This document shows positions 1-8,937 of a DNA stretch of 17,583 nucleotides, piece by piece. The notes beneath the pieces are model-generated. The model was not told the DNA's origin. It searched no databases and saw only the letters and a list, made by a program, of their open reading frames with translations. The translations under genes were made by a program, and so were the position numbers. The first letter of the stretch is position 1. The number at the start of each line of letters is the position of its first letter. The stretch lies in the IMG/VR virus record IMGVR_UViG_2609459845_000009. One strand, 5' to 3'. Origin of the DNA: a virus. Its lineage: Duplodnaviria > Heunggongvirae > Uroviricota > Caudoviricetes.

Positions 1-939
1 TACGAATCGGTTGGCTGCAGCGATGCTGATCGGTTTGTTTATGTCTTCTCCAGGGAAAAGAACATCATTGTACGTTGTCATGGCCTTTTCGAGAAAAGGC
101 TTAATTTGTTCGAAGATTGGACGGCGGATAACATTACCCATCTTGCTATGCTCTTTCGGTACGGTCCATACGTTGTCCAGCAGGTCAAATTCTGTCTTTG
201 TTGCCAGCCTAAGCTCTGAGAGCCTCGCCCCCCACAGCATAAGCATCTGATGAAGGAGCTTATTTGACGTAGACGCACGGCTTCTTTCAATAGCAAGCCA
301 AATCTTAGCCAGTTCGTGATACGACAGTACCCGATCCCCTACCTCAGCGCGGGAGCCGAAGTCCCTTGGTTGGATGCTCATAATTGCGCAACTATCTATC
401 AACTGACGCCGCATGCACCAACTTATTGCTGATCTTAGTTGACTTAGCACCTGCCTTGCTCGGCGTGGATTATCTCTTTCTTCTTCGGTAAGCAGGTCAA
501 CCCATTGCTTAACCGTGATAGAAGATGCCGGACGATTAGGAAAGGCGTCATGCATGCGCTTCATAACCGTTGATCGGTAAAGTGCCTGGGTCTTTTCTCT
601 GAGAGTTGTAGAGACGTAGTTGTCGAACCAGTAGTCGAGACACTGGGCGACCGTCATGGAGTTCTCCACCTTCTCTTCAAAATAGGTGCGTGGATCCGTT
701 CCTGAGAAATAGAGCTTTCGCAAGTCAGCAGTGATCTGTCTGGCATCCTTCAAAGACAGGGATGGGTATCGACCAAGCCCAAGTCGATTAGGCTTGCCAT
801 GCCAGCGATAGCGGTACTGGAACTGGATGACCCCCTTCGGTGAAATTCGTACGCTGAGGCCATCGGCATCAGCCACTTCTTGTGGGCCCGAATATGGTTT
901 ACCATAAATAGTACGCAGTTTTGTGTCGCTTATAGCCAT
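1..939 (-). CDS. int: Tyrosine integrase, P4-like family, partial (C-terminal catalytic part lies beyond window start)
   Basis: Minus-strand ATG at 939-937; own translation gives MAISDTKLRTIYGKPYSGPQEVADADGLSVRISPKGVIQFQYRYRWHGKPNRLGLGRYPSLSLKDAR..., the DG-GL / RYR-GK / LGxYP-SL-AR pattern of the arm-binding N-terminus of P4-type integrases. Frame stays open to position 1 where checked (939-781 and 60-1). Missing from the supplied ORF track because it runs off the edge. Confidence 0.8.
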   Translation of the reverse strand, partial: MAISDTKLRTIYGKPYSGPQEVADADGLSVRISPKGVIQFQYRYRWHGKPNRLGLGRYPSLSLKDARQITADLRKLYFSGTDPRTYFEEKVENSMTVAQCLDYWFDNYVSTTLREKTQALYRSTVMKRMHDAFPNRPASSITVKQWVDLLTEEERDNPRRARQVLSQLRSAISWCMRRQLIDSCAIMSIQPRDFGSRAEVGDRVLSYHELAKIWLAIERSRASTSNKLLHQMLMLWGARLSELRLATKTEFDLLDNVWTVPKEHSKMGNVIRRPIFEQIKPFLEKAMTTYNDVLFPGEDINKPISIAAANRFV

Positions 940-1830: not shown

Positions 1831-3117
1831 GTGAAAAATAATTCCGCGCTGTTTGTTGGTTCTTTTTTTGAAAGTGACCAAAGCTCAAAAGTAAACCTGG
1901 CATTATCTTATGATGGAGAACGATTCGAAAAAATAAAGGCTCAATTCCTTTGGGCTATTGGTGGAACTGGAGAAGTTTTAGGGAGAGACCCATCAATTAT
2001 TTATCACAACGGTTGGTGGTTAATAGCCGTATCAGGATATACAGAAAACGTTTATGACGTCGATTGCTGGCGCTCACGTGATTTAACCGTGTGGGAACTG
2101 GTACGAATTAAGCTTGGCGATACGCCAGTCTGTGGGAAACGATTACCGGGTTCAGATCTGGTGACCACTGACGTGTGGGCTCCTGAATGGTTTGTTGATG
2201 ACGAAAATCTGTTCCTGATAGTCAGCCTGCGTTATTACAACGATCAGACTGACAGTAAAGGTGTAAATGTCAAAAGTTTTAAAACATTCTATTCTGTCTG
2301 TTCTGATGTTGAGAGACTGGAGTTTTACGATCCGGTTGCGGTAAATATCGAACCAAAAAACATGATTGATTCTGTTTTTTCCAGAATATTCCAGACGTAT
2401 TACCTGACAATAAAAGATGAAATCACCAAAAAAATTGAGGTGTATTGTTCAAATTGTTTCTCAGGACAGTTCACGAAATTATCAGTAATTCCGTTTACTC
2501 AGGCGGCGGAAGGCCCGGCGCTGGTTTATTTGCCGGACGGCACGATCAGAATCTATGCGGATTTTTTCGACACAAAAAAATGGACTTATTTTGTAGACAC
2601 GAAAGACTTCGTGACGTTCACGCCAGAGCGCCCCGTTTTGTTTGACGGCAGAATTAAGCGCGGGACTATTACAAATGTGCTGAACTGGCGCGATAGTGAA
2701 ACCGCATTGCAGCAACTGTCGGCGCTGTTCTGTGCAAACTCCGGGGATTTACAGCCAGGGAAAATCCACAAGCTCATTGATGTAGCGGGAACGAGCAATA
2801 TCAACGCTACTGATTTAATCTGGTGGCCTGAAACTGGACATTGTTATTTCACCGAGGGGTTATCCGGTAACGTGACAATCAATGCGCTGCCAACTGTTTA
2901 CCCGGACGGGAGTTCGTTTTATCTGATGGTCCGAAGCGCAACGCCGGGAGCTGGTGATCTGACGCTTAAACAGGCTGTCGGCGACCTGTACCACCCGGCT
3001 AATGGCATGGCGATATTTGATGCTGATTTGGTAGTGGCGGCTGGCGGGAACGCCGCATCACGTCTGTTTAGAATGGTGTGCTTTGATGGCCAGTTGTGGG
3101 TTGAGGGGGTTTTCTGA
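1831..3117 (+). CDS. Hypothetical 428-aa protein; N-terminal part resembles a GH43-type five-bladed beta-propeller glycoside hydrolase, C-terminal about 140 aa unassigned
   Basis: Long ORF in an AT-rich island; GTG start (first in-frame ATG is far inside). Motifs in GH43-like order: RDPSIIYHNGWWLIAVSGY, DVWAPEW, AEGPALVYLPDG. No signal peptide. Assignment is motif-level only. Confidence 0.5.
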   Translation: MKNNSALFVGSFFESDQSSKVNLALSYDGERFEKIKAQFLWAIGGTGEVLGRDPSIIYHNGWWLIAVSGYTENVYDVDCWRSRDLTVWELVRIKLGDTPVCGKRLPGSDLVTTDVWAPEWFVDDENLFLIVSLRYYNDQTDSKGVNVKSFKTFYSVCSDVERLEFYDPVAVNIEPKNMIDSVFSRIFQTYYLTIKDEITKKIEVYCSNCFSGQFTKLSVIPFTQAAEGPALVYLPDGTIRIYADFFDTKKWTYFVDTKDFVTFTPERPVLFDGRIKRGTITNVLNWRDSETALQQLSALFCANSGDLQPGKIHKLIDVAGTSNINATDLIWWPETGHCYFTEGLSGNVTINALPTVYPDGSSFYLMVRSATPGAGDLTLKQAVGDLYHPANGMAIFDADLVVAAGGNAASRLFRMVCFDGQLWVEGVF

Positions 3118-3151: not shown

Positions 3152-4213
3152 ATGAACAATAAAATATTTTCCGTCCAGTATCTTCGTGGAATAGCAGCGC
3201 TACTTGTGGTGCTGTACCATTTTTCTTTTTTTACTCCGCGCTGGTTTGCTAATTTATTTGCAAATGGCATGGTGGGCGTTGATATTTTTTTCATTATCTC
3301 TGGATTTATTATTTATTGGTCAACAATAAATCCTGAGGAATGCAGACCAACGGTATTTATTGTTAAACGATTCGCCAGAATATACCCGCTATTTTTTGTT
3401 GTGTTACTGGTTTCGTTGTTATTGCAACCTGCGCCTGCCACACAATTATCCAGGGGTTTTCTGGTTCTGCACAACGATTACACACTACCCGCTCCGGCGT
3501 TTGGATTTAATCTGCTACCGCCCGCGTGGACATTGACTTATGAAATATCGTTCTACGCTATTTTCTGTATGTGCGCTGCAATAACGACCCGGTATCGAGG
3601 TTCATTGTGTATCGCGCTGCTGATTGCAATCCCGGCAGTGCTACAGGTTGCGTTTAATGGAGGGTTGTCGTTTAACAGCACAGTCACCGCTATCCCTCCT
3701 GCTGACTCGCCGTTTTATGGTCTAATCAGGCTGGCAGGCTCAACGATGTTTTATGAGTTTGCGTTTGGGATTATGTCTGGAATGATATTTGAAAGGTTTA
3801 AATTAATTCTTCCTAACTTAACTGCTATTACTATAGCAATATTCGCATCGGCTTTATTTTTCTATTTTTTCTTCACATTCTCAGACCATACCAGCGGTAT
3901 AGAAGGAATGTTCTTTTTTGCTGCAATATTTTTTGTGGGCGTTTTGATGCTGGATAAATCAAAGGCGGGAGAGATAAAAGCATTATCAATTCTTGGCGAC
4001 CTGACATATAGCATTTATCTCTGTCATTGGCTGGTAATGCAGATGGTACAGAAATTTATTCCGATTGGGGAGTATAAGCACTGGGGCGTCCTTGTCCCCT
4101 GCATGCTTGTTGCTTCTCTGATGATGGCATTCGCAGCTAACCGGATAATTGAAAAACCGTTTATCCGTCTGGCCCGTTCGGCGCTGAAACGCCAGGAGAT
4201 TACGACGCGGTAG
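3152..4213 (+). CDS. Acyltransferase family 3 integral membrane protein (OafA/Oac-like O-acetyltransferase)
   Basis: N-terminus MNNKIFSVQYLRGIAALLVVLYHF is the acyltransferase-3 signature; many hydrophobic segments; 34 nt downstream of the 428-aa gene, same strand. ATG 3152 preferred over the track's TTG at 3140. Confidence 0.8.
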   Translation: MNNKIFSVQYLRGIAALLVVLYHFSFFTPRWFANLFANGMVGVDIFFIISGFIIYWSTINPEECRPTVFIVKRFARIYPLFFVVLLVSLLLQPAPATQLSRGFLVLHNDYTLPAPAFGFNLLPPAWTLTYEISFYAIFCMCAAITTRYRGSLCIALLIAIPAVLQVAFNGGLSFNSTVTAIPPADSPFYGLIRLAGSTMFYEFAFGIMSGMIFERFKLILPNLTAITIAIFASALFFYFFFTFSDHTSGIEGMFFFAAIFFVGVLMLDKSKAGEIKALSILGDLTYSIYLCHWLVMQMVQKFIPIGEYKHWGVLVPCMLVASLMMAFAANRIIEKPFIRLARSALKRQEITTR

Positions 4214-7230: not shown

Positions 7231-7462
7231 TCAATCTGTCCTCGCGCTCTTTGCGCTTGTAGTACCAGTTGATGCCAAATGTGCCGACAGTACAAAGAAT
7301 ACCAATGATGACAGCCCAGTCATTCAGGGAGAGAATGCCACCCATCGCAGTCAGTCCTCCGAAGCTGTAACTGAACCATTCTCTGATTTTGTCCATAGCG
7401 CACGTTAATACCCGCTCGACGCTTTCTTTCAGGTATTGAAGGGATTGAGATGGGCTAAGCAT
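7202..7462 (-). CDS. S: Holin (probably pinholin partner of the SAR endolysin)
   Basis: 86-aa ORF with hydrophobic segments and a charged C-terminus ([10 protein letters not shown]); strong AGGAGG Shine-Dalgarno 6 nt before ATG 7462; overlaps the lysozyme start. Internal start at Met23 (7396) is possible. Confidence 0.7.
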
Positions 7463-7822: not shown

Positions 7823-7975
7823 CTACCGGATATCCCACAGGTGAGCTGTGTAATTGAAGATTTTTACGTCAGATTCTTTTGGGATTGGCTTGCGTTTATT
7901 TCTGGAGCGTTTCGTTGGAAGGTATTTGCAGTTTTCGCAGATGATGTCGGTGAAACTTCGTCGCTGTCGCCTCAT
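7823..7975 (-). CDS. ninE: NinE
   Basis: [50 protein letters not shown] resembles lambda NinE; ATGA overlap with the upstream Dam reading frame. Confidence 0.75.
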
Positions 7976-8500
7976 GCCGCCCTCCTGACGCCCTGCCCGA
8001 TCGCCATCAATGCCGCTTTGGATACGGTAGTAAACATCCGTCGAGGACTGATGAACGGTCGCCAAATCAGCAGCATGGAGCCTTTGCTGTTTCCCTTCTT
8101 CTCCAGCCCTGTCGATGGTTCGATAAAATTAATCCGTCCATCAGTGATAATGCGAACTTCGTCGACACTCTCCAGAGCCTTGCTGAACCATCCGACTGAC
8201 ATATCCTCTGGCACAAGCATAACTACCGTCTGTCGCTGTTGTATGCACTGCTCAGCGGCTTTTTCCACCCACGGCCTGATATTGCTGTACGGTGGGTTAT
8301 TCCAGATTGCACCGTGGCTTATCCACTCAGAATTTAGCGCGTCGTCGGCCTCAGTTAACCAGTGAGCGCACAGAGCATTTTTTGTCGCTCGCTGCCGAAT
8401 CCAGCCAGAATCCAAACTCAATATCCAGTGCATCAAAAAGCCAAAGCGGCGTTTGCCAGCAGTCCTTGTCGTGTGCTGGCGTATTTGATTTGATAGTCAT
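7972..8500 (-). pseudogene. Phage-type DNA N6-adenine methyltransferase (Dam) interrupted by a frameshift in an A6 run
   Basis: N-terminal frame (8500-8351) has MTIKSNTPAHDKDCWQTPLWLFDALDIEFGFWLDSAASD; C-terminal frame (to 7972) has NALCAHWLTEADD...NNPPYS (motif IV). The frames meet at T6 on plus strand 8378-8383; removing one A restores a continuous protein. Confidence 0.7.
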
Positions 8501-8937
8501 GCAGCCCGATCTCCCCATCGCGCTTTCCATTCGAGAGCCAGTCGCGCTTCGTCTGACCACTTAACGCCACGCTCTGTACCGAATGCCTGTATAAGCTCTA
8601 ATAGCTCCGCAAATTCGTTTACACGCATCCTGCTGGTTGACTGGCCTATTACCACAAAGCCATTCCCGGCAAGGTTAGGAACAACATCCTGCTGCTTTAA
8701 TGCTGCGGTAAACACACACTTCCAGCTTTCTGCATCCAGCCAGCGACCATGCCATTCAACCTGACGAGAGACGTCACCAAGGCAAGCCCAAAGCTTTCGA
8801 TTCTGGTCTAAGCTGCGGTTGCGTTCCTGAATGGTTACTACGATTGGTTTGGTTGGGTCTGGAAGAATTTGCTGTACCGCGTGAATAGCGTTTTGCTGAT
8901 GTGCTGGAGATCGAATTTCAAAGGTTAGTTTTTTCAT
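8497..8937 (-). CDS. ninB: NinB (Orf-family recombination protein)
   Basis: MKKLTFEIRSPAHQQNAIHAVQQILPDPTKPIVVTIQERNRSLDQNRKLWACLGDVSRQVEWHGRWLD... matches lambda NinB from memory; ATG at 8937. Confidence 0.9.
   Translation of the reverse strand: MKKLTFEIRSPAHQQNAIHAVQQILPDPTKPIVVTIQERNRSLDQNRKLWACLGDVSRQVEWHGRWLDAESWKCVFTAALKQQDVVPNLAGNGFVVIGQSTSRMRVNEFAELLELIQAFGTERGVKWSDEARLALEWKARWGDRAA

Follow-up and report, generated by a model that had tools for sequence, protein, structure and literature searches.

A one-base expansion of a short adenine run splits the dam gene of a defective lambdoid prophage of Escherichia coli

The described enzyme closest to the gene analysed here is the adenine-N6 methylase M.EcoVT2Dam of phage VT2-Sakai (BAA94133; homologue of 933W L0094), whose target is given as GATC in a passage of PMC6602927 that cites Radlinska and Bujnicki 2001. 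What phage-borne Dam enzymes of this kind do is described as poorly understood (PMC7556043). More distant homologues are M.T1 of phage T1 and Orf13 of Haemophilus phage HP1 (PF05869/TIGR01712), to which the VT2-Sakai record itself notes similarity; they share with the present protein the format of a small Dam of about 175 amino acids that has an NPPY motif and no separate target-recognition domain. Two other systems resemble the locus in a different way. The phasevarion mod genes of Haemophilus, Neisseria and Helicobacter are methyltransferase genes whose reading frame is set by repeat length, and their long repeat tracts vary between and within closely related strains. In Stx phage phiPA8, M.EcoPA8orf6770P is an MT-A70-type 16S rRNA methylase encoded by a prophage gene that bears a DNA adenine methylase annotation; the gene is naturally knocked out in some strains, as by IS629 in phiPA2, and its loss affects spontaneous induction (PMC10810198).

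We analysed a stretch of 17,583 nucleotides (IMG/VR record IMGVR_UViG_2609459845_000009; hereafter the window), which is the entire draft contig JNRH01000072.1 of E. coli assembly GCA_000704585.1 in reverse orientation. A plus-strand T6 run at 8378-8383, corresponding to A6 on the coding (minus) strand, lies inside a phage Dam gene. Translated from the ATG at 8500, the minus-strand frame reads MTIKSNTPAHDKDCWQTPLWLFDALDIEFGFWLDSAASDKKCSVRSLVN and then meets a TGA stop codon at 8351-8353, closing an N-terminal ORF of 49 codons (8351-8500, minus strand) that consists of 40 native and nine out-of-frame codons. The +1 frame reads ...KNALCAHWLTEADD...NNPPYS...GVRRAA up to a stop at 7972-7974 (also written ...KNALCAHWLTEADDALNSEW...NNPPYS...GVRRAA) and holds the C-terminal 135 Dam codons with the catalytic NPPY motif (7972-8377, minus strand), as seen from the translation and from profile matches. 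The ORFs as listed, 8351-8560 and 7972-8436 on the minus strand, overlap at 8351-8436. The window thus lacks the single ORF of about 175 codons expected of the family; because the frame is broken at A6, the locus is a pseudogene of the phage Dam family and not a working member. The initial annotation had proposed that two well-preserved Dam halves lie in different frames that switch at this run, and the split is confirmed by both reading frames and by the PF05869 and TIGR01712 matches of the two parts.

In Pfam PF05869 the N-terminal fragment matched profile positions 1-40 (39.3 bits) and the C-terminal fragment positions 37-167 (168.3 bits). Deletion of one A from the run restores a 175-amino acid Dam protein, which matched positions 1-167 with 218 bits (cutoff 28.1). 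With the NCBIfam equivalog TIGR01712 (phage N-6-adenine-methyltransferase, cutoff 97) the corresponding scores were 55.7, 197.7 and 264.2 bits, such that the N-terminal fragment as encoded falls under the cutoff. Judged by these profile coordinates, the two halves are colinear parts of one domain, far beyond chance. The repaired protein is identical to VT2-Sakai Dam at 174 of 175 residues, and on this degree of identity its designation as a GATC-type Dam, made in the initial annotation, is very probably right. The gene shares with M.EcoVT2Dam its Pfam and TIGRFAM families, the position between ninB and ninE, and overlapping stop and start codons; the window copy differs in that a +1 frameshift interrupts it at codon 41, and in that the prophage around it is defective and lacks stx genes. 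We also considered whether the gene might be the Stx-phage 16S rRNA methylase and rejected this assignment, since that enzyme (PMC10810198) belongs to the MT-A70 family, has a DPPW motif, is encoded elsewhere in the phage, near its left end, needs the partner PNB-2 and has no homology to the NPPY Dam of the nin region.

Conserved segments lie on both sides of the frameshift. The N-terminal ORF contains the motifs DCWQTP and LDSAAS and the C-terminal frame contains NNPPYS; in an alignment of 35 homologues, reaching down to 58% identity, the DxWxTP, LDxAA and NPPY segments are invariant or nearly so. A conserved EFGFxLDxAA segment lies within the N-terminal fragment, and 12 of its first 40 residues are invariant (S5, T7, T17, P18, F22, A24, E28, F29, F31, L33, D34 and A36). 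An AlphaFold model of Dam (mean pLDDT 76.8, pTM 0.80) has a helix at residues 19-29 and a strand at 31-38, and is poor near residues 40-48. Foldseek matches in the PDB were N6-adenine methyltransferases, including CAPAM, CamA and E. coli Dam; they are weak (best E = 4.6e-4, TM about 0.55) and place strand 31-38 in the core of the fold while being too weak for detailed inference. When the PDB was searched by sequence, no relative of solved structure emerged, the best match (E-value 0.18) being spurious. With strand 31-38 in the core, the frameshift would separate a conserved core strand from the catalytic NPPY part, and general knowledge of methyltransferase motifs suggests that this strand probably helps in cofactor binding. 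Among intact dam alleles, 49% of 183 variants are synonymous compared to 22% expected, an excess that indicates purifying selection on these alleles.

The gene is embedded in the nin region between ninB (8497-8937, minus strand; PF05772) and ninE (7823-7975, minus strand; PF05322), both placed by the gene calls of locus L007. The gene tables have the order ninB-dam-ninE in common for L007, the intact locus L001 and VT2-Sakai. The sequence ATGA at 8497-8500 contains the ninB stop and the dam start, and a second ATGA at 7972-7975 contains the dam stop and the ninE start. The first overlap points to translational coupling of ninB and dam. Ribosomes entering at the dam ATG, coupled to ninB, would synthesize a 49-residue peptide and then stop; this product would retain the segments conserved at the N-terminus and, of the methylase fold, the first β-strand of the core. 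A survey of the upstream sequence found no plausible start codon with a Shine-Dalgarno sequence for the C-terminal half, so that active Dam would not be made from the NPPY-containing +1 frame, beyond rare slippage products. Since translation of dam ends about 380 nucleotides upstream of ninE, the coupling to ninE is probably broken as well.

Full-length enzyme could in principle still be produced from A6 as a form of deliberately low expression, by +1 frameshifting or transcriptional slippage. A -1 frameshift was discarded as a route to full Dam because the -1 frame reaches a stop within about nine codons. For a +1 shift, the P-site tRNA-Lys following GAC AAA might re-pair from AAA to AAA, after which AAT GCT would continue the native DKNAL sequence, and some full-length Dam may arise in this manner. 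Several features of the locus speak against programmed recoding, however. More than 99% of the dam homologues are plain in-frame A5 genes and the two-frame arrangement is not conserved; the A site holds no slow or rare codon and no stop, and reading the sequence by eye revealed no upstream Shine-Dalgarno-like stimulator of the kind found in prfB. Furthermore, six A's are below the length required for efficient slippage of RNA polymerase. We consider recoding extremely improbable, and the AAA AAA context would be expected to yield at most a trace of the Dam enzyme.

The direction of the change was established by comparison with homologous prophages. The top E. coli matches all span 700 nucleotides against a 701-nucleotide query, and 79 nucleotides against an 80-nucleotide query. 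The intact homologues carry A5, and the change in the window dam is therefore an insertion, A5 to A6. In a census of run lengths, A6 was found in none of 1254 complete E. coli records carrying the region (1411 places) and in none of 193 phage records; in IMG/VR, three contigs had A6 and at least 120 had A5, and neither A4 nor A7 occurred. When one A is removed, the window dam matches intact alleles base for base, among them L001 and four IMG/VR loci, and it has no lesion other than the extra A, which indicates that the inactivation is recent. A very recent inactivation was one of the readings proposed at the outset, and it is supported by this identity and the absence of further damage.

A different way to account for the extra A is that dam is in fact intact in the strain, with A5, and that A6 is a homopolymer miscall in the consensus. 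Indel errors typically arise at homopolymers; the window is itself a short draft contig, its assembly contains three near-duplicate contigs of the region, and A6 occurs in no complete RefSeq E. coli genome. In addition, many genes are fragmented in the assemblies behind two A6 carriers, L004 and L136, whose A6 may be an error. Opposing this explanation, the window differs from sister contigs (L002, L006, L008 and L009) by three to eight substitutions and no gaps over 16.4 kb, and hence the contig is not prone to indels. The same A6 is present in all three contigs of the assembly and in sister assemblies, and it recurs in unrelated data: another NCBI draft assembly, an ENA metagenome and Logan re-assemblies. 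A6 was present in 10 of 10 loci with the window backbone, the window included (the three GCA_000704585.1 contigs together with L002, L005, L009, L011 and L012-14), although several A6 assemblies share one isolate collection and hence are not independent. These loci, which include three sister assemblies, are 99.85-99.99% identical to the window without gaps, except for the ENA metagenome contig L011 at 99.69% with one gap. A6 was further found on two unrelated lambdoid backbones, L003 (GCA_038073755.1) and L010 (the Logan assembly of SRR23175538).

The distribution of A6 over dam haplotypes weighs further on this question. The 126 dam loci resolve into 85 haplotypes, and 12 of the 13 A6 loci have exactly the haplotype of the window, even though the 29-nucleotide context of the run is common to all haplotypes; a context-dependent miscall would not pick out one of them. 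The window haplotype also occurs with A5. Thirty-one A5 loci would yield the same 49-amino acid product and only five of them are on the window haplotype; within IMG/VR the association of A6 with the haplotype has a Fisher p of 2e-4. Given this restriction to one haplotype, we conclude that A6 on the window haplotype is very probably a genuine mutation, identical by descent among its carriers. We therefore judge a sequencing or assembly error, which the initial annotation had offered as another possibility, to be improbable.

A second A6 was detected in L137 (GCA_000613265.1), L138 (the Logan assembly of ERR13669349) and L136, in a haplotype that is the commonest of all and is 10 sites away from that of the window; L137 and L138 have a common backbone. 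The product ending in ...SLAN that is expected from this haplotype was found on only three contigs, and a third variant product, P0004, exists. Occurrence of A6 on two haplotypes independently makes the run a weak recurrent mutational hotspot. It might then be asked whether the run acts as a contingency tract, in which flips between A5 (ON) and A6 (OFF) are frequent enough to turn the prophage Dam on and off at the level of the population. The location of the frameshift at a homopolymer, the origin of A6 at least twice (window and commonest haplotypes) and the existence of P0004 would fit such a switch. Known phase-variable switches, however, use homopolymers of about 8 nucleotides or more, and the present tract has only five to six. 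The rarity of A6 in the census, the lack of A4 and A7 alleles, and the three contigs with the ...SLAN product also count against switching. Closely related genomes showed no variation in tract length: A6 was constant on the window backbone, with no reversion at any locus, and an A5 copy on this backbone, be it ancestor or revertant, was found neither among 139 loci nor in 5426 complete genomes, where the best match to the whole window had 68% coverage and 98% identity. Thus, in contrast to phasevarions, the window tract is short; essentially all genomes have A5 here, and a single lineage has A6 stably. The suggestion of a slippage-prone on/off tract was not borne out, and we regard a switch as very improbable.

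The A6 allele resides in a prophage that has lost other functions. Comparison with L005 and L007 and their gene tables placed the junction of a 2509-bp deletion, relative to the sister prophage L005, at 7390-7400 of the window (window position of about 7396, L007 position 10188), the deleted segment being 10547-13055 of L005. The deletion removed ninF, a YbcO-like gene, rusA, ninH, the Q antiterminator and the region upstream of the holin. Because the holin gene is thereby fused at its 5' end to the junction and Q is lost, the lysis genes are probably silent. The gene tables list no terminase, portal, head or tail genes in the window, and together with the ninF-Q deletion this renders the prophage defective. 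L005 and L011 have Q yet carry A6, and the frameshift is therefore older than the deletion.

The left end of the window consists of the 5' part of a tyrosine integrase gene (1-939, minus strand) and an att region that includes about 46 nucleotides of sbcB, and its int-sbcB junction is 99.7% identical to that of strain CEC15. Near position 1137 (region 1-1166) the left end is fused to the right end of the prophage, which carries S24/UmuD-like and cargo genes; in sister contigs the same right end adjoins dacD-sbmC-yeeA. The joining of left and right ends points to an attP-type junction, as would result from prophage copies in tandem or from excision as a circle. In one assembly the same 16.4 kb is represented by three contigs, four to five SNPs apart. 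The gene tables of L006 and L007 have shortened cI and cII genes and no cIII. We considered a contig full of indel errors and rejected it in view of the few substitutions, the absence of gaps and an intact cI (210 amino acids); the odd cI, cII and cIII calls are accordingly gene-caller artefacts.

Gene calls at dam itself also deserve comment. The exact 49-amino acid product is present in public collections, where GenBank names it 'DNA N-6-adenine-methyltransferase family protein'. A 174-amino acid antisense ORF (window 7841-8365, plus strand) has no family match, and several public A6 assemblies (L003, L010 and L011) annotate this ORF in place of the C-terminal half of dam; the call is an annotation artefact that results from the frameshift. 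A separate allele, P0020 (JGI/ENA), encodes 175 amino acids that in the alignment are in an alternative frame at residues of about 4-47 and become normal again at LTEADDAL. It is apparently a compensated double frameshift in which the conserved N-terminal motifs are scrambled.

The window also contains a GATC-rich region upstream of cargo genes. Three GATC sites occur within 32 bp (1703, 1716 and 1734, in the segment 1690-1831), set in a 13-nucleotide direct repeat, GATTTTGATCGTT, at 1697 and 1728. The cluster precedes, by about 100 bp, the GTG start codon of a gene for a 428-amino acid protein (1831-3117, plus strand), which is followed by a second gene (3152-4213, plus strand). We take the cluster to resemble the Dam/OxyR-controlled phase-variation regions of gtr and agn43. 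Neither cargo gene had an NCBIfam match; precomputed Pfam results assign Acyl_transf_3 to the second and give a faint GH43 hint for the first, and the pair adjoins a tail-fibre-assembly remnant. The two genes may form a surface-polysaccharide modification module. GATC sites in E. coli are already served by the Dam of the host, and the nin-region genes are dispensable in lambda and are transcribed from pR only after derepression. Control of the cargo promoter is hence unlikely to depend on the phage dam, and judged from such general knowledge the link between the two is weak.

Taken as a whole, the observations are best explained by a genuine heritable loss-of-function allele of a lambdoid-phage Dam gene, a reading that we hold to be very probable. 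Its cause would be the one-base expansion from A5 to A6 at codons 39-41, with replication slippage on the homopolymer as the likely mechanism. The allele would have arisen once on one dam haplotype, prior to the ninF-Q deletion, and then been inherited by the prophage lineage integrated at sbcB/dacD; it would also have been transferred, as a ninB-dam module, into the two other lambdoid backbones. With dam being accessory in the nin region and the prophage unable to form virions, relaxed selection could explain why A6 has persisted. A more elaborate proposal, that the run is a low-frequency recurrent ON/OFF site at which OFF is favoured in lysogens and loss is adaptive, strikes us as having a very slight chance of being correct. 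If it were, a leaky phage Dam might interfere with the GATC-controlled cargo operon (1697-1831), disturbing its Dam/OxyR-type phase variation, or, alternatively, phage Dam might affect prophage induction.

The loss-of-function allele looks like an ordinary event of gene decay and not like a genetic switch. It is known in kind, since accessory genes of decaying prophages are routinely found frameshifted, and the fragment has a GenBank entry that bears a methyltransferase name. For annotation, 7972-8500 should be flagged as one pseudogene, and the strain should not be counted as having an extra active Dam when methylomes or the GATC-rich promoter are interpreted. The same +1 event on two haplotypes provides a small example of a homopolymer hotspot of decay.
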